Positions 19,711 to 45,726 of a stretch of DNA of 64,000 nt are shown here, piece after piece. Origin of the DNA: a phage; NCBI GenBank assembly GCA_017676145.1, contig GCA_017676145.1_3628.1; one strand, given 5' to 3'. The notes under the pieces are model-generated. The model searched no databases. It had not been told where the DNA came from and was given only the letters and a program-made list of their open reading frames with translations. The position numbers and the translations under genes are program-made. Each line of letters begins with the position of its first letter. The stretch's first letter is position 1.

Positions 19711-19926
19711 ATGAAGATAGAAATATTTGGTGGAGCTGACAACACTCGTGGCCTGATTTACCTTGAATTCGATGAATCATACCTGCCAGAGGTGTTAAAT
19801 ATAGACTCTGTTGCTGAGGCTTTGGGAGTAAACCCTAAAGAACTCCACTCTTGTGCTGAGATCGATGGTTGGGAAGAGACCCTGAACATCGATTTCAGTG
19901 AAGTAGAGGATGAACCGCTGGACTGA
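19711..19926 (+). CDS. small acidic protein (71 aa)
   Basis: agaggag SD; MKIEIF start similar to other small ORFs in block. Confidence 0.45.
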   Translation: MKIEIFGGADNTRGLIYLEFDESYLPEVLNIDSVAEALGVNPKELHSCAEIDGWEETLNIDFSEVEDEPLD

Positions 19927-20053
19927 CACACAATTAGCTGCCCGGCTAAAGTGCTGGAAGCACCTATAACACATCTTTCAACTAAATTTCCTACCACCAC
20001 AATCACTTACCTCCCACACATGACTGTTTGCTTGTTTAGTGAGCAGTCATGCC

Positions 20054-20081
20054 TTGACATTCTTACCTATCCTGATAAAAT
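20054..20081 (+). promoter_or_regulatory. sigma70-like promoter (TTGACA-16-TAAAAT) followed by hairpin + T-run within about 50 nt
   Basis: ccttgacattcttacctatcctgataaaat, then ccgagtaattcggg hairpin and T-rich tract (about 20110-20135): possible very short transcript or attenuator. Confidence 0.35.
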
Positions 20082-20499
20082 TAAGTTCTTCTCTTTTCTT
20101 TTACCGAGTAATTCGGGTTTTCTGTTCTCTTCGGTTTGAAGGGGTATGGAGATACACCTGAGTGAACAGGGTGAACAACCGAACAGTTAGCTATGGCATT
20201 AGCATGGCGAAGCGGACGGGTGACGAAAGAGGGGCCGGAGGACACCAGTCACTGCCATATGGTATATGGGTGATAACCTGAAGAGTCTGAATAAGTGTTT
20301 AAGTACCAGTCAGAGGAAAAGGTGAATGGTAGCCGAAGGGGGAGGGGGGTTTCTTGTATCTTTAATTTGTATACTTTATATACACTTGTAAACCAATTCA
20401 ATTAGAATCTGTTTACCACACAAAGTGGATACAGGCAAATATTCCCTATTAAACTTGAATTATTTATAGAAAATACCACAACACCACTTAAGTCTTTGA

Positions 20500-20660
20500 T
20501 TTTACACACAAATCTTACAGATATTCAACCTCCATATTTAACATACCTGTAACATATCCCATACTCTACCTGCCTGATCAATTTCCCAAACTACATCCCC
20601 ATATTTTCCCTTCCTGTACTACCCCTGCCCCGCCGGGAGTCCCGTCATATCTGGCTTTCC
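20500..20660 (+). other. strongly strand-biased pyrimidine-rich (C+T) tract in non-coding hub
   Basis: About 160 nt with very few G on + strand (aacctccatatttaacatacctgtaacatatcccatactctacc...). Confidence 0.5.
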
Positions 20661-21044
20661 AGCAAATATCACACCCACAAATATCATCACCTGAAGAGTG
20701 ATTCCTCCCATAATCCACACCCTGCCTGAAGAGCGCTTCATACACCGCGTAAATTTTTTAATTGATCCCTCCCCGCCGCCGGAGAGGTTGGCTTTTCCCA
20801 CACAGGCCTGAAGAGTCAGCCAGAAATATCTGAAGGGTGTCCAGTTCTACCACGATTTTGACCTGACCTACAGGAGTGCTGCCCTGTCAGGAGCCGTAGC
20901 GACTGGAGTGCTGCCAGGCGGACGAAATGGGAATACTTCTCATTCTTATAACAATTCTCAAATATCGGGGCAGTGAGGCAAATTAATAGGCGAGGCCGCT
21001 CACACAGTGGCACAACATTTGCAGGCTATTTTGTGGGGGTGAAT

Positions 21045-21078
21045 GAGAATACCTATCATTGTGAGAATAGTTATCATT
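21045..21078 (+). repeat. tandem pair of 16-bp motif GAGAAYRNYTATCATT
   Basis: gagaatacctatcatt and gagaatagttatcatt 2 nt apart; same motif recurs at about 31924 and 32050. Confidence 0.55.
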
Positions 21079-21473
21079 ACGGGCAATTTAACATAATACC
21101 CATTATGCGCACCACTGTCGATACATACAGGGATTGATAACATGGGTTACTGTTTACGCATATAACAATTGTATTTCTTATTATTTGTGGGGGATATAGT
21201 TAGCAACCAATAGATTAGTTATTAACCTGCGGACTTCTGACCGTCTAGACGTCCAAACGCCCACACCACAAGGATTATACATACACTCCTGAATGTAAAC
21301 AGGTCCGAAAAAATGCTACCATACCAGTTTGTAAATTTTCCATGCAGCACTTGACAAAGAGGAGAAAAACTTGTCTGACACCTTATACACACCGGGCACC
21401 TTATACACTTTCGACACAATAACGACTGTTATTATTTCATGTTTCATTATTCACGTGCAGATTGTTCCTGCGT

Positions 21474-21535
21474 AGACTGTTTACGCCTGGATAGTTTGCA
21501 CCTGAATAGTTTACACCCTGACAGTTTACGCATAG
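21474..21535 (+). repeat. array of four AGTTTAC(G/A)C-type iterons spaced 14-15 bp
   Basis: ctgtttacgcc / tagtttgcacc / tagtttacacc / cagtttacgca in direct orientation. Confidence 0.55.
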
Positions 21536-21543
21536 ATGATAAG

Positions 21544-21562
21544 CCATGACATTCGTTTGCAT
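21544..21562 (+). repeat. 19-20 bp direct repeat copy 1 (gccatgacattcgtttgcat)
   Basis: Exact second copy at 21837..21855; the pair brackets iteron/palindrome-rich segment. Confidence 0.6.
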
Positions 21563-21594
21563 GATAACACCCTTGAGACGAGGGCTATGCTCCC

Positions 21595-21660
21595 GAGTTT
21601 AACAATTAACAAGATAACAATTGACAAGCTAACAGCCAACAAGCTGACAATTAACAGGTT
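21595..21660 (+). repeat. array of AACAATTAACAAG-like iterons
   Basis: taacaattaacaag ataacaattgacaag ctaacagccaacaag ctgacaattaacagg: four direct repeats. Confidence 0.5.
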
Positions 21661-21836
21661 AATAATATATGACATAATATAAAAGCAGGGCAACTATTAG
21701 CAGATCTATAGTTGCCTTGCTTATTATGTCATGATTAACTGAATACAAGGCAACTATGATCTGATTAATAGATTGCAGACAAACTATCACGGGGGTGATT
21801 GTTACTGCTTTTATATTATGTCGCGACTCCGTCGCG

Positions 21837-21855
21837 CCATGACATTCGTTTGCAT
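21837..21855 (+). repeat. 19-20 bp direct repeat copy 2 (gccatgacattcgtttgcat)
   Basis: Identical to 21544..21562. Confidence 0.6.
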
Positions 21856-22470
21856 AGTTGCCTTATTGTTACAGGTAAAATAATTACATTGTTAACTATT
21901 TCTTATCTTTCTCTTAGTCATCTAATGATTCCAGTCAGTATAGTTATGTGCAGTAAACATTAGACGACTAAAGATTTCTCTGATTATAGTAACCTATCGT
22001 GACAATTTCGGACTGTTTACGAAAAATGTTGACACCTGGGCAGGTTTATGTTATGCAGTTTGTACGAATAATTATTTTGTACAGGTATTGACTATTCCGT
22101 TATTCTGTGGTTGGAATAAATACTTTGCAGGCTATAGAATGGTGATCGTACGTGGATTCTGAGATCTGTCGGCTATAGTTACACCCGATTTTTCACGTAG
22201 GACGCGCTTTTTGGTTTGTGTAAGTGTATGACTTATAAGGGTTTTTAATTGTTGACAGTATACTGAAAATGTGCATCAGGTTAAATTTTGCGCAATAGCT
22301 GCATTACGTGCAATTTTGGGAGAGAAAACAGGTAAAAATAGCACCGCTACCACACAATGAAAGGTTATGCAATAGTTATTTTACATGTATATTTGTACAG
22401 TGTGCTGGATTAATGGCTCGTCAATTATTCCACTTGTCAGGTAGGGCCGTTTATGGTAGGAAAAGAGCAG

Positions 22471-22497
22471 ACAAAAAAGAAAGGGGCCTAAGCCCCC
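22471..22497 (-). terminator. rho-independent terminator at the 3' end of the leftward block
   Basis: On - strand ggggc-ttag-gcccc hairpin followed by TTTCTTTTTT; 15 nt after stop of 22512..22775. Confidence 0.6.
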
Positions 22498-22511
22498 TTG
22501 ATAATGTTGTA

Positions 22512-22775
22512 TTATTTGTTGCTCATCCAGTTTTCCCAAGCTGCCTGATAATCTGCCTCACTGCGGCGGATCTCTTCTTGTTCTTCAAGCCGGATCTCTT
22601 CTTCCAGGTACCCAAGGATATCGGATTTTTTGGTCTGGCGTAACATCCAATCATCTTTTTTACGAGTAAAGATCTTGTACGCTTTCTCGCAAACCTCTTT
22701 TTTACTACCTTTTTGGACTTCAAGAACTTTGTAGGCCATGTACTGAACTAGTTTGAGCTGATCAAGACGTTTCAT
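22512..22775 (-). CDS. hypothetical charged protein (87 aa)
   Basis: Track ORF; aagaggta SD; last gene of leftward block. Confidence 0.5.
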   Translation of the reverse strand: MKRLDQLKLVQYMAYKVLEVQKGSKKEVCEKAYKIFTRKKDDWMLRQTKKSDILGYLEEEIRLEEQEEIRRSEADYQAAWENWMSNK

Positions 22776-41952: not shown

Positions 41953-42609
41953 TCAGCTTACCGAGAAATTCTGCTCGGACATACTCTTCGGGGACCTCTT
42001 CCCTTTGTTTTTACACCTTGCGGTTTTAGGTATCCCAGTGTACCATGCCCAACTCCTCCCAGTCAAGATATTGGAAATGGTTATTTGATTAACACCGAAA
42101 AGATCTGCTATAGCTTGCTGTGACATACCTGTTTTGGAAAGCTTTAATATTTCGTCAACATCTCTCTCTTTAAGTTTTGCACAGTATGATCTTTCCCCTC
42201 TTGTTTTACAGTAATCGTAGTCCACATCTTGGGCATTTTTTGAAGGCGAGGCCCATTCAAGGTTATCAGCAGCATTGTTTAGACGATTATGGTCTTTATG
42301 ATTAATCGGCACATAATCCAGCCCTGCTGCCTTACACTCTTCTACAAGCTCTTTTGAGGGAGGCTCTAGAAAGGTCTCGGCAATTAACCTGTGAAGCAAT
42401 TCCGATCTTCCATCCACATTTACTTGAATGTAACCGCTACTGTCTACGCTACCTTTTAAAATCCTGTCAGGGACAGCTTTGAAAGTAACTTTACCTGTTT
42501 GGTTACTGTACTTTCTCAGGTAAGACAGCCTTTTAATCCTTCCTTTGCTGCTAACTTCATAGTCGGCCTCCTTGCCAACCAGTTTTCTCCATTCCTCCAT
42601 AGCAAACAT
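41953..42609 (-). CDS. free-standing HNH homing endonuclease (NUMOD4-like N-terminus, HNH core, C-terminal HTH)
   Basis: EEWRKLVGKEADYEVSSKGRIKR (NUMOD4-like), INHKDHNRLNNAADNLEW (HNH), GMSQQAIADLFGVNQITISNIL (HTH); located 12 nt downstream of DNA polymerase exon 2. Confidence 0.75.
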   Translation of the reverse strand: MFAMEEWRKLVGKEADYEVSSKGRIKRLSYLRKYSNQTGKVTFKAVPDRILKGSVDSSGYIQVNVDGRSELLHRLIAETFLEPPSKELVEECKAAGLDYVPINHKDHNRLNNAADNLEWASPSKNAQDVDYDYCKTRGERSYCAKLKERDVDEILKLSKTGMSQQAIADLFGVNQITISNILTGRSWAWYTGIPKTARCKNKGKRSPKSMSEQNFSVS

Positions 42610-42620
42610 CTCTTATCAGA

Positions 42621-42974
42621 TCAATGGCAACTACCCCAATTAGCCCCACACAAGTATTCACCTGTGATCTGGAACGGAACGCCCATCATTTTAGAAGCTT
42701 GCCAGAAGCAATGTACCACCATTTCGCCCACAGGGCTCCAGATAAGTTCAAGCTTTCCGTCCTCGTTCAAGATAGGATCGTATACCGTATTTCCATCCTT
42801 GTCAACCACTTCGTTTCCGTCCTCATCCTTGCGTGCCTTTTTGTACTTATGACCGTCGAACACATGAAGTTTAGCCTCTTGCTGGGCTTTAAATGTTTCC
42901 AGCTCTTCAATTGTGTCGAAGGTGTATACAGTTTTATACTTAGGTGTGTCAGGTACTTGAAGTTGGTACTCATC
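42621..42974 (-). CDS. DNA polymerase (family A), exon 2 (C-terminal 117 aa)
   Basis: Begins DEYQLQV (completing motif C HDE with H from exon 1) and ends ...GANWGSCH, matching the conserved C-terminal His of T7-type polymerases. Confidence 0.6.
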   Translation of the reverse strand, partial: DEYQLQVPDTPKYKTVYTFDTIEELETFKAQQEAKLHVFDGHKYKKARKDEDGNEVVDKDGNTVYDPILNEDGKLELIWSPVGEMVVHCFWQASKMMGVPFQITGEYLCGANWGSCH

Positions 42975-43302
42975 CAATAGTTCAGGTAGGTCGTTAAGCT
43001 ACCCCGCACCATTACGTGCATAGCCATACAGTTTCCCGTATGGATCGGACTATCTCACTGCCTTGTCACCAAGGCACCTCTCATTTCGACCGCACTTGCT
43101 GGCCTACTCTACTCGCTTCTTCACCCCAAACTGTGTTGGAGCTATGCTTTCGATAGTCTCTGAACGTTCATCCTCTCGGATGCTTCGCTGCGGATTAGCA
43201 TATTGAGCTTTTACCATGGTTAGGTGTAAAAGTCAACTTAGCCTTCCCGTCAATTAAAGAGGTTTTCGACGTGCATCACTGCACGAAGCCACAATGTTAT
43301 TT
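42975..43302 (-). mobile_element. ORF-less group I intron interrupting DNA polymerase motif C
   Basis: 328 nt between H and DE codons of motif C; exon 1 ends in U, intron ends in G; P7-like pairing AGACUAU / AUAGUC present; in-frame stop 1 codon into intron. Confidence 0.55.
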
Positions 43303-45726
43303 ATGGTAATAAATAATCCGACGAACACCCTCATCATACCATCCACGCTTCACCAGCTGGTGGTGCATGAGGATTCCCACCAAGTCGCACAACGAGGCAC
43401 CGCCATTTTGCTGATATGCATTAAGCAAAGAGTGTTTAGAGCGGGTCCAAATGGCATGACCGTCAAAAGAGTAGATGAATTTCTTACCTGTTGCTTCCCA
43501 GAATTTCTCCAGATCCTCTTTACGCCCCTTAAGACCTGGGTTGGCATCCCAGAGAGCATCGATTACTCTCTGCCCCAGCTCTGGAGAGATATCCAGCATA
43601 TCTGCAACTTTATCTTTTTGTGCCCCGTACATAACCCCATACGTGACAGGCTTACCATCGTTACGAGACACCTCCCTGCCTGCTACTTTTGTATATGCCT
43701 CAGCATTGTTTTGGTGCGCATCTCCGTTACTTACAACATCATAGTACAGACCGTTGTCGAACTCAAAGGCACCCCAAGCCCCGATAAGCTGCTCTAAGTT
43801 GGACCCGTCAATACCGATCTCAAAGTATCCGGGAGGAACACCCCACAGACTACGCATCTCTTTACCCATAACCACTTTAGGAGATGGTTTAGGCATGTTT
43901 GCACAAATGCTGTGTTTCTGTCTGGAAGTGTTTGTTAATCCAGAACTTTTAGCAGGAAGCTTATGGTCAATCTTCAAACGTGGATGATTAAGAAGACCAG
44001 TATCAACCTTATCCTCCTTGATTGGATCAAGGACCGATCTACGGTTTCGCAAGGATAACCACAAGACGATATCTTTAGCCATCTCTCCGTTCAACTTTTC
44101 AAGATTCGGACATAGGTGTCCAAACGTATCTTTCAGTTGCGGAGAAGTAATAAGCGCTCTGGCTTTTCTACGTATCTTCCCAAACACTTCCTTTTTAATC
44201 CTTTCTGAGTTAGGGAAGCTTCGGAACTTGTGCACGGTTGTCTGAAACTTAGCATCAGTTTTGTTCCAGAAGTTTATAATTAGGTCACAATACTCTGACT
44301 CTAAAAGCTCGTCCATATATGCATATACTCGTGCATCAACATCAGCATCAGGCAGAGCTTTCTTCTTGCTGTCTTTAGTTACATCCTTAGTTCTCCACAT
44401 TGTTGGGAGCCAACCAGCACTAATCAGGTATCGCTTAATGTCGTCCTGATTGCTGATTTTCATAGGTATCTTGCAGTCAGGCATTCGCTTCTGCTGTAGG
44501 TCACTTATTGCCTGATCCATTAGCTCTTTAGGTAAAGGGTGTGGTGTAGAAGTTCCTTTGATATACCCCCTCAAGAAATCAGCCATCTTATCTGGGTCTT
44601 TACAGCCCATCTCTTCACACCATTTTATCCCCATTTTGCTGACATCCCCTGCAGAGGTAAATGCTCGCTTAGGAGGGGCTTTGAACTCTAAAGCGCTCAT
44701 GTCCACAGGATAGCCAAGCTTGTCTTTTAACCATTTCCAACCATTATTGGAGATTGTCCCATCCTGGTTAAACGGCTTTTCAGGGAACTTAGGCCGCTGA
44801 GACATTGATAACTCTTTTAAAGGAAGTTGTGGTTCAACACGATCAGCGATCTCTTTCATCCACGCATCGCAGCGGTCACGTAAAGCAATAGCCCCATCTA
44901 TGTCGAAATACACACCCTGTCGAGCCTGCAGCTCCATCAGGAAATGCTGCAGCATGCCTCGGCGTAATGCATTCTTCCAGGTAATCTTCTTGAATCCTTT
45001 AGGCTTCTCTTTGGCAGGGTCATACATAAAGTTCTGCATGTCAGATTTGCCGTAGAATACACCTTTTGATTCCGCTACCAACTCTTTCCAGAGCAACTCC
45101 TGGATGATAACGTCCTCGAACACACGATCCACATATTTCCACAGTGGAAGCTCACGCCAGTCATCGATTTGAACTTTCTGGTTACCAAGGGCATAGCCCC
45201 ATGCCATAAGGCCATGAGGCCCAACAGGTTGCATTTTCTTGGTAACTGGATTGAATACTGCGTCCGGACAACCTTTTGGCAAAGGGCGGTCAGGCCACAA
45301 GATTCGGCTCATAGCTAACGTATCAAACAGATTAACCTGGTGGTCGTTGATAGTTCCCATGCATTTAGGGTCACGGAACATATCAAAATGAATACCAGAT
45401 AATCTCTCCATCAGCATAAAGTCATAACTGTAGCAGTTATGGCAGTTCAAAGCTGTTGGTGACCAGTCGGAATTGCCTGTAAGCCAACCTTCCAACTCCG
45501 AAAAATCTGCTATGCGGACTTCAAAATCTTTATAAAGAGTTTTCTTTGCTAGAATAAAGTTCTTAGCCTTCTCTACATCCTCTTCAGAGTAGTGTGTGCG
45601 GTCATTTAGAGGAAGGAACAGCATAAAACGGTTCTTATTCAGCTCTTTAAACAAACCGCAGTGATAATAAAGATCTGGATCTTCCAGCAAGCCCGAGGCC
45701 TCCAGATCGAAAGACCACATACTCAT
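43303..45726 (-). CDS. DNA polymerase (family A, T7-like, with 3'-5' exonuclease domain), exon 1
   Basis: Exo I motif FDLEASG; motif A-like GIDGSNLEQ; motif B RNDGKPVTYGVMYGAQ; ORF terminates right after ...IIYYH, immediately before motif C acidic residues. Confidence 0.8.

Follow-up and report, generated by a model that had tools for sequence, protein, structure and literature searches.

Published descriptions of the rV5-like myoviruses (genus Vequintavirus) contain two observations that bear on how their genomes end. The map of rV5 shows a grey 'non-coding' box without open reading frames (ORFs), with the convergent genes 163/164 on either side (Kropinski et al. 2013, PMC3606486), and 'short terminal redundancies of 458 bp' are reported for EdH4 and HdK5 (Korf et al. 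2019, PMC6563267). The rV5 authors remarked on a change in GC skew at the non-coding box and expected bidirectional terminators there, finding none (PMC3606486). Outside the genus, twofold coverage and PhageTerm defined a T7-type direct terminal repeat (DTR) of 514 bp in the Klebsiella phage KPP-1, a Mydovirus (PMC9862379). Here we analyze the corresponding locus, a gene-free gap at positions 19927-22511 of a 64,000-nt stretch of phage DNA (contig GCA_017676145.1_3628.1; hereafter, the window), which we interpret as the region where the genome ends are made.

For T7, papers citing the original work describe models in which the terminal repeat is duplicated by strand displacement or by primed synthesis, and they mention that a hairpin intermediate was seen. 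According to these citing papers, fold-back DNA associated with the terminal repeat, the T7 'hairpin end', was proposed as an intermediate in repeat duplication (Chung, Nardone and Hinkle 1990, J Mol Biol 216:939).

The gap in the window is the same locus as the rV5 non-coding box and the EdH4-HdK5 redundancy, with 86-95% identity and the same convergent gene blocks on either side. Nearly full-length matches (~86-95% identity) occur in 122 phage records, all from rV5-like myoviruses of the genus Vequintavirus; judged by its sequence, the source phage of the window is an rV5-like Vequintavirus infecting E. coli. Most of these records annotate nothing in the gap, and the curated BASEL phages are likewise blank. 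The rV5 and Korf papers do not place the repeat within the non-coding box and leave its edges, its flanks, the inverted repeat and the promoter block described below without mention. Within the open-access literature we found no statement linking the published terminal redundancy to the published non-coding box, nor did we find accounts of the repeat edges, of the core shared across the subfamily, of the inverted repeat with its covarying arms or of the conserved promoter block. A first-pass annotation, made from the letters of the window alone, had proposed a replication origin, a packaging site (pac or cos) or a genome terminus here; it had not noted the repeat boundaries (20917/21375), an 18-nt inverted repeat or a promoter at 20054-20081. 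Our analysis makes it likely that the gap is a genome-end, or concatemer-junction, region serving unit-length packaging with fixed ends and a short DTR.

Genome ends of relatives map to a 459-bp repeat in the gap

The features that bear on the proposed ends are as follows (window positions; a slash within a motif marks a repeat edge).

19927-22511, unstranded: gene-free region, probably terminal (concatemer junction), flanked by convergent gene blocks; equals the rV5 'non-coding' box
20902-20930, unstranded: putative left cut-site motif ACTGGAGTGCTGCCA/GGCGGACGAAATGG, invariant in 13 Vequintavirus copies
20917-21375, unstranded: direct terminal repeat of ~459 bp, to which the end repeats of EdH4 and ECP2309 map; single copy in the window
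21044-21078, + strand: 18-bp tandem pair TGAGAATACCTATCATTG within the repeat, called a repeat_region in several records
21086-21112, + strand: subfamily-wide repeat core ATTTAACATAAWACNNNTTATRCGCAC, 27 nt; the sole significant blast hit between the window and KPP-1
21350-21381, unstranded: putative right cut-site motif CTTGACAAAGAGGAGAAAAACTTGTC/TGACAC, genus-invariant; the sequence is hypervariable from ~21382

The linear records of EdH4 and ECP2309 carry an exact 459-bp direct repeat at both ends, and this repeat maps to 20917-21375 of the window. The same two positions recur in records from different laboratories: in our similarity table, those of bov10K2 and bov22_2 begin at 20917 and those of YN3 and HdK5 finish at 21375. 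The first base of the later bov10K2 record (version 2) coincides exactly with the left repeat edge. The window contains a single copy of the repeat because its source record was opened elsewhere on the circular map and is permuted with respect to the virion ends. Comparison with these relatives strongly supports the view that virion DNA would run from ~20917 round the map to ~21375, with the 459-bp repeat at either end. The 'repeat_region' annotated in naswa and magaca was considered as a candidate terminal repeat and rejected, as it is merely the 18-bp tandem pair.

Sequence conservation changes abruptly at both edges of the repeat. Over 12 Vequintavirus copies, identity is 90-96% within 20917-21375; beyond the left edge it falls to 60%, with indels (20850-20900), and beyond the right to 37-75%, with gaps of 18-58% (21400-21650). 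Across 13 copies, each edge forms a sharp border between invariant and hypervariable sequence, variability setting in within ~20 nt of the left edge and ~6 nt of the right. The right-edge motif, CACTTGACAAAGAGGAGAAAAACTTGTC/TGACAC, is invariant at base resolution in these 13 copies.

The edges and the core extend beyond the genus. Blastn in 'distant' mode found relatives of the gap only within Vequintavirus, and A73-type gaps have zero nucleotide similarity to it by the same program; comparison across genera was possible only via the flanking protein, the mapped KPP-1 repeat and the core motif. In the KPP-1 record, the DTR sits in a ~1.8-kb gap between convergent blocks. One IMG/VR genome (2974564184) has the core at both contig ends and an exact 519-bp DTR. 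The left-edge homologues read ggtgcta/GACGGAC in KPP-1 and tgtta/GACGGAC in IMG/VR 2974564184, and the mapped right edges read CTTGACAAGGAGAGAGAATTGTGTT/tagc and CTTGACAGGAAGATAGAAAAGTGTT/tagc, respectively. In 14 loci, these two mapped edges included, the right-edge motif stands at a constant distance from the core. The Septuagintavirus phages A73 and A5-4, found via the flanking protein (67-69% identity), also contain the core, and scanning IMG/VR with the core pattern returned 21 loci on contigs of 137-152 kb.

Three independently bounded repeats from three lineages (EdH4/ECP2309, KPP-1 and the IMG/VR genome) have edge motifs and an internal core in common. Homologous cut-site sequences in three lineages make an assembly artefact very unlikely, and in our judgment they outweigh the published 'permuted' and 'headful' calls discussed below. 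Among the kinds of terminus that the first-pass annotation had offered, a cos site is at odds with the 459-bp duplication at each end of the relatives' genomes, and a headful pac site with end positions that are shared by independent records and edges that are sharp and conserved. The suggestion of a genome terminus or packaging region is the one that stands, with the ends and the ~459-bp repeat of the relatives' records mapping to 20917-21375. A sequence of a few hundred bp at both linear ends, as expected of a DTR, is found in EdH4, ECP2309 and the IMG/VR genome; for the window phage it is predicted by homology.

An inverted repeat with covarying arms lies to the right of the repeat

To the right of the repeat, two copies of a short direct repeat enclose a structured element.

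21543-21562, + strand: 20-bp direct repeat GCCATGACATTCGTTTGCAT, left copy, exact
21671-21835, unstranded: cruciform-capable element with 18-nt perfect arms (21671-21688 and 21805-21822) and a 116-nt hairpin-rich spacer
21836-21855, + strand: 20-bp direct repeat, right copy, exact

The right arm is directly followed by a GC hairpin, GCGAC-TCC-GTCGC (21823-21835). Folding of 21671-21835 gave z = -9.9 as DNA and z = -10.3 and -9.6 as RNA of the two strands, and in a sliding fold scan this element and one non-conserved neighbor were the only strongly structured parts of the gap. A structured segment at 21400-21550, flagged by the 120-nt scan, was rejected: its 170-nt DNA fold reaches only z = -1.06, and its sequence is not conserved.

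Beyond the window, 17 related loci have a perfect inverted repeat whose arms of 16-22 nt are separated by 71-204 nt. In these loci it lies 410-704 nt to the right of the core, which corresponds to 230-320 bp inside the left genome end (~300 bp in the window), and it is accompanied by an outer motif GACAnnATA, by GTTAC immediately before the right arm and by a GC-rich tail. Two loci with enough sequence lack it. The sequence of the arms has diverged with retention of pairing: over 8 lineages, both partners have changed in 12 of 16 pairs and a single partner in none, a result reached by 0 of 500 shuffles, and over 11 lineages all 176 cells are Watson-Crick, with zero G:T. Arms swapped between lineages match at a mean of 9.1 of 16 pairs. 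MAFFT broke the arm register in three lineages; the formal pair count uses 8 rows and the ungapped count 11. The lack of G:T pairs and the equal folding of both strands suggest a constraint on pairing at the DNA rather than the RNA level, which argues for pairing that is selected, or maintained by template switching, in DNA.

We also considered a miniature inverted-repeat transposable element or other transposon, and rejected it: the direct repeats do not abut the arms and exceed the length of a target duplication, and the element has kept its position despite arm divergence between lineages.

Repeats and arrays flank the terminal repeat

Outside its edges, the terminal repeat adjoins variable DNA and, farther away, conserved non-coding DNA.

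20450-20860, + strand: pyrimidine-rich left flank, with CCTGAAGAG at 20690, 20725 and 20807, two copies of AAATATCA, and C-tracts
20861-20898, unstranded: indel-hypervariable patch adjoining the left repeat edge
21382-21670, unstranded: hypervariable zone with two arrays of 15-bp period; 37-75% identity, 18-58% gaps
21856-22479, unstranded: conserved non-coding right flank; 85-95% identity, no coding signature, no fold signal

All of the repeats listed in the first-pass annotation are real and far above chance expectation. CCTGAAGAG occurs four times as described, at 20277 and at the three positions above, always on the + strand, where 0.02 copies are expected and 0 of 300 dinucleotide shuffles reach 4; the four copies are kept in 11-12 of the 12 Vequintavirus copies. 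The tract at 20500-20660 (66.5% pyrimidine, 8.7% G) has the highest pyrimidine content of all 161-nt stretches sampled across the 64 kb. Tandem motifs reported at 21045-21078 correspond to the 18-bp pair, and the inverted repeats GCAACTAT and ATAGTTGC are present in 2+2 occurrences against 0.11 expected. The exact 20-bp repeat likewise exists, one base away from the coordinates first given (true starts 21543 and 21836). It had been described as bracketing iterons and short inverted repeats, and it does flank the long inverted repeat; in the relative FV3, everything between the two copies is missing.

Both tandem arrays were also confirmed. Array 1 is of the GTTTAC type and spans 21474-21535, and its copy number varies among relatives; array 2, of the ACAATTAACAAG type, spans 21600-21666 and is missing in 8 of 12 relatives. 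Their designation as origin-type iterons (21474-21666) fared less well, as they lie outside the repeat, where the gap is least conserved and richest in indels. A scan of four other Vequintavirinae lineages detected no tandem arrays in the corresponding place, leaving Vequintavirus as the only one to have them. By analogy, the arrays resemble the short-repeat arrays of T7 more than origin iterons.

Related 8-mers lie left of the repeat in other phages, with CCACAGAG occurring four times in A73 and CCTGAAGTG three times in a 145,964-bp contig (L035). A comparison of C- and G-tracts, covering 100-360 nt left of the repeat core in loci L015 and L022-L044, showed paired C-tracts (C4-6 N1-3 C4-6) ~100-140 bp outside the left edge in most lineages; in the window these are at 20622 and 20766. 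Septuagintavirus and three IMG/VR lineages instead have G-tracts (for example, G5AG5AG5) just inside the left edge. A model in which G/C tracts near the left edge are a conserved element was dropped, because their strand and position vary among lineages. On the other side of the repeat, a module of ~33 nt (window copy ACACCCTTGAGACGAGGGCTATGCTCCCGAGTTT, 34 nt) occupies 21565-21600, between the 20-mer and array 2. A close variant of it is found in the apical spacer of the inverted repeat in A135 (L017) and phita32 (L019), where the spacer measures 149 nt as compared with 116 nt.

A promoter and an ultra-conserved block precede the repeat

At the left end of the gap, three features lie close together on the + strand.

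20019-20051, + strand: hairpin CATGACTG-17 nt-CAGTCATG, just 5' of the promoter; the 120-nt scan segment 19960-20079 has z = -3.6, on the + strand only
20054-20081, + strand: predicted sigma-70 promoter, TTGACA-16-TAAAAT with a TG extension; 11/12 consensus matches, the best in the region
20088-20351, + strand: ultra-conserved, purine-rich non-coding block ending in GAAGGGGGAGGGGGGTTTC; Vequintavirus-specific

The promoter points toward the repeat, 836 bp upstream of it; its hexamers are conserved, and its spacer differs in one relative. The hairpin that precedes it may, tentatively, be the terminator of the + gene block. TTGACA occurs five times in the gap, always on the + strand (20054, 21351, 21621, 22029 and 22252), and only the copy at 20054 has a good -10 partner; for the copies at 22029 and 22252, in the right flank, this was judged by eye. 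The copy at 21351 is a portion of the right cut-site motif and is kept across genera.

The block at 20088-20351 is 95-99.7% identical across the genus, above the level of the flanking genes, and 20088-20147 is invariant. It ends in a G-run of polymorphic length, after which the DNA is AT-rich. The KPP-1 and A73 gaps lack it. We detected no fold signal in 20088-20360 (z = -1.47 on the + strand, -0.22 on the - strand) or in 20088-20916 (829 nt, z = +0.67), and for this reason the idea of a large structured RNA pairing the purine-rich with the pyrimidine-rich half was dropped. A mimic of a host small RNA, or a mobile element, was ruled out, since the block has no match in E. coli genomes. We regard the block as a candidate transcript or R-loop element. 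G-rich transcripts that prime replication through a persistent hybrid are known from ColE1 RNA II, T4 oriF/oriG and mitochondrial CSBII, and we treat the likeness of the block to such sites as a lead.

The locus resembles the T7 junction and the KPP-1 gap in different respects

The T7 junction, which we assembled from the T7 record, contains an exact, gene-free repeat of 160 bp; the window repeat is likewise gene-free and ~3 times longer. On the left-end side of the T7 repeat, CCTAAAG arrays with a 13-bp period begin after 14 nt, and the heptamer is scattered on the other side. The window is similarly arranged, with arrays to the right of the repeat and CCTGAAGAG copies to the left, and the flank motifs are alike (CCTAAAG in T7, CCTGAAG in the window). 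Within the Vequintavirinae lineages scanned, this T7-like arrangement of arrays is confined to Vequintavirus. The T7 phiOR promoter lies ~550 bp upstream and is directed toward the repeat; the window promoter has the same direction but is of the sigma-70 type, and the window phage is not known to have an RNA polymerase of its own. Unlike T7, the window phage is a 137-kb myovirus in which the genes on both sides are transcribed toward the ends. The T7 'hairpin end' offers a possible functional parallel for the inverted repeat beside the window repeat, an analogy that we treat as a lead and not as membership in the same system.

The KPP-1 locus shares with the window the gap between convergent blocks, the edge motifs, the core and, ~315 bp beyond the right edge, a long perfect inverted repeat that has a GC-rich tail. 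Otherwise, nucleotide similarity is nearly zero, and the left flank of KPP-1 is much shorter, without the promoter, the ultra-conserved block or the 15-bp arrays. The arms of the KPP-1 inverted repeat differ in sequence from those of the window and keep perfect complementarity. Iteron origins such as lambda ori and plasmid oriV/oriR resemble the gap in their 15-20-bp tandem repeats near palindromes and AT-rich DNA. Unlike the repeats of such origins, those of the gap vary in number, are partly dispensable and genus-specific, and lack an accompanying initiator gene or DnaA box.

The gap lacks coding signatures and known RNA families

The final + gene stops at 19926 and the final - gene occupies 22512-22775, as in the first-pass annotation, whose statement that no credible ORF lies between them agrees with the substitution pattern. 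One further feature closes the gap on the right.

22480-22499, - strand: intrinsic terminator of the - gene block, from a terminator scan; also annotated in the Murica, EdH4 and Alma records

We counted substitutions per codon position in 12 aligned Vequintavirus copies (the window and 11 relatives) for ORFs of at least 30 aa. The two flanking genes show third-position bias, with 7/3/27 and 13/7/48 variable sites at codon positions 1/2/3. No gap ORF of at least 30 aa shows such bias among the 11 relatives, and most of these ORFs are broken in most relatives. Only two are intact in most of the 11, at 20162-20281 (+) and 20081-20245 (-); their variable sites number 4/3/2 and 3/4/4, and they lie in the nearly invariant block. 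At gathering score, Rfam 15 matched nothing in the gap; relaxing the threshold to E = 10 gave three chance-level matches, all over the terminator (22459-22585). A search for tRNAs in the gap found none.

In many relatives, including Septuagintavirus, a gene of 139 aa stands beside the gap, separating it from an 87-aa gene. The Murica record notes a 'Rel homology domain' for it, and it has no Pfam match. It is found at 6620-7039 in L001 and also in L019, L020, L022 and L023; the window (around 22511), FV3, EdH4 and SYGMH1 are without it. Among the records matching the gap, 19 are titled 'Campylobacter phage' (host C. jejuni), at ~86-93% identity, and one that we inspected is marked UNVERIFIED. 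By their sequence, these look like mislabelled or contaminating vequintaviruses.

A group I intron lies elsewhere in the window

Away from the gap, a group I intron (Rfam RF00028, 75 bits, E = 3e-17) was found at 43025-43312 (-). It comes directly after an 809-aa ORF at 43297-45726 (-) that, judged by eye, is family-A DNA polymerase-like. Past the intron lie an exon-like ORF of 118 aa (42621-42977, -) and then an ORF of 218 aa (41953-42609, -) with an HNH-like motif, also recognized by eye. This arrangement suggests an intron-split polymerase gene with a homing endonuclease.

Discussion

Taken by analogy with T7, the proposed end region would work as follows. Replicating genomes would form head-to-tail concatemers in which neighboring genomes share one copy of the repeat. 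Terminase would recognize the junction and cut at two conserved sites, GTGCTGCCA/GGCGGAC and CTTGACA-purine run-TTGTC/TGAC, and the repeat would be duplicated via DNA synthesis. The hypervariable flanks may reflect recombination or slippage beside DNA ends.

Several observations weigh against this scheme or against parts of it. The ends of the window phage are placed by homology, at 93.75% identity to the EdH4 repeat, and other linearization points exist within the gap, at query positions 1400 (241Ecol014PP) and 1260 (A13b). T7 has no long inverted repeat (one 9-nt match only), and the T7 analogy leaves this element unexplained. The loci bearing it were found by searching for perfect complementarity, such that the '100% paired' result is partly built in; positional homology, flanking-motif homology and arm divergence were not built into that search. 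FV3 (L045, NC_019517), the species closest to the window, lacks 21563-21855, that is, array 2, the long inverted repeat and the GC hairpin, and has one copy of the 20-bp repeat left. Either this deletion is natural and viable, or the 2012 assembly is collapsed there; unless the assembly is wrong, the inverted repeat is not strictly essential. Lastly, published calls describe the rV5 genome as 'circularly permuted' (PMC3606486), bov10K2 as 'circular permutated' by PhageTerm, and BpE1AUH as headful.

These calls are what favors headful packaging from a pac site in the gap, with a permuted genome and with the 459-bp repeats of the records as assembly artefacts. We hold this to be very improbable, in view of the identical end positions of independently deposited records, the support of the KPP-1 DTR by twofold coverage and PhageTerm, and the start of the later bov10K2 version exactly at the left edge; moreover, assembly overlaps would not share edge motifs over three lineages, nor would they meet the breakpoints in conservation. 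Still harder to credit is the presence of small protein genes that were missed or inconsistently called. Some records do contain scattered coding-sequence calls (hypothetical proteins and one 'structural protein'), and the 39-aa ORF at 20162-20281 is intact in 11 of 11 relatives. Against this, both flanking genes show the third-position bias that no such ORF has, most of the ORFs are broken in most relatives, the two intact ones sit in near-invariant sequence, and the BASEL records annotate nothing. A replication origin in all or part of the gap, a reading compatible with a terminus, is possible from the motif architecture, and we rate it as unlikely. It could use the 15-bp arrays as iterons, or an R-loop formed from the promoter at 20054, the G5AG6-T tract at 20337-20351 and the AT-rich DNA at 20352-20450. 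Consistent with it are the direct-repeat arrays and palindromes, the near-consensus promoter with conserved hexamers followed by 260 nt of non-coding DNA more conserved than genes, the polymorphic G-run and AT-rich DNA at the end of this block, the T7-like DNA polymerase and primase-helicase of the phage (PMC3606486, for rV5), the location of the GC-skew turn, as remarked for rV5, and the T7 precedent of a secondary origin promoter adjoining the terminal repeat. Opposing it, the arrays are the least conserved portion of the gap: 8 of 12 relatives lack one of them, and the scan of the other lineages yielded none. The gap has 0 perfect DnaA boxes and 2 relaxed ones, a number at chance level (23 of 300 shuffles reach it); Pfam returned nothing for the small proteins on either side, and no recognizable initiator gene stands beside the gap. 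Of the parts of an iteron origin, the AT-rich stretch at 20352-20450 does exist. The change of gene orientation at the same place is enough to account for the GC-skew turn. As for the R-loop version, the block with promoter and G-tract is missing from the KPP-1 and A73 gaps, G/C tracts elsewhere differ in strand and position, and the likeness to CSBII and ColE1 is a tentative one.

What the inverted repeat does is a separate matter from where the genome ends lie. Our preferred, speculative suggestion is a fold-back or cruciform acting in DNA during end processing or priming: it could prime itself, form a hairpin cut by a resolvase that aids repeat duplication, or start replication at the end. 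We put this forward tentatively, as an idea that is more likely wrong than right. Our second choice of role for the element is a bidirectional transcription stop that would insulate the two convergent blocks in concatemers. The corresponding rival holds that the element is mainly such a terminator or insulator and the gap a buffer against read-through between the blocks of head-to-tail joined genomes, which is conceivable, though we doubt it. The element lies between convergent blocks in every lineage examined, its pure Watson-Crick pairing would function on both strands, and the window element has an A-rich left arm and a T-rich right arm, as two-way terminators do. A terminator is annotated in the gap in the Murica and Alma records, at positions that by rough coordinate conversion are consistent with the element, and the rV5 authors had expected one at the non-coding box, finding none. 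Yet a canonical terminator (22499-22480) already closes the - block ~650 bp ahead of the element; the 71-204 nt enclosed by the arms are far above the size of a terminator loop; several lineages have a right arm poor in T (for example, CTCCATAACTGACTATGGCGG); and the terminator scan did not call the element. Nor would termination explain the fixed distance from the repeat edge, the conserved GTTAC or the GC-rich tail. Another rival, about as doubtful in our estimation, is that the gap encodes one or more non-coding RNAs: an early transcript of ~260 nt from the promoter at 20054, and possibly a structured RNA at 21671-21835. The strong conserved promoter with the ultra-conserved non-coding block behind it and the RNA fold of 21671-21835 (z = -10.3) speak for it. 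Against it, there is no Rfam family match even at E = 10, 20088-20360 folds no better than shuffles and has no canonical terminator, and zero G:U in 176 cells with equal folding on both strands is unusual for a constraint at the RNA level; in the open-access literature we found no transcriptome data for the subfamily.

Placing the genome ends in the gap has practical consequences for this abundant and therapeutically used group of phages. Most of the ~120 deposited rV5-like genomes are linearized arbitrarily, with the 2.6 kb left blank, and papers disagree on whether the genomes are permuted. The repeat, the two cut-site motifs and the 27-nt core would allow records to be oriented and annotated consistently across the subfamily, and would tell phage engineers which DNA to retain for packaging. 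The ultra-conserved, promoter-proximal block poses a second puzzle, specific to the genus. For the biology of the ends themselves, the duplication of short terminal repeats is still modelled mostly on T7, and a conserved inverted repeat that covaries at the DNA level and keeps a fixed distance from the terminal repeat, together with the apparent deletion in FV3, provides a concrete handle on this process. If the fold-back suggestion is true, the inverted repeat would be a conserved, sequence-definable counterpart of the 'hairpin end' inferred for T7.

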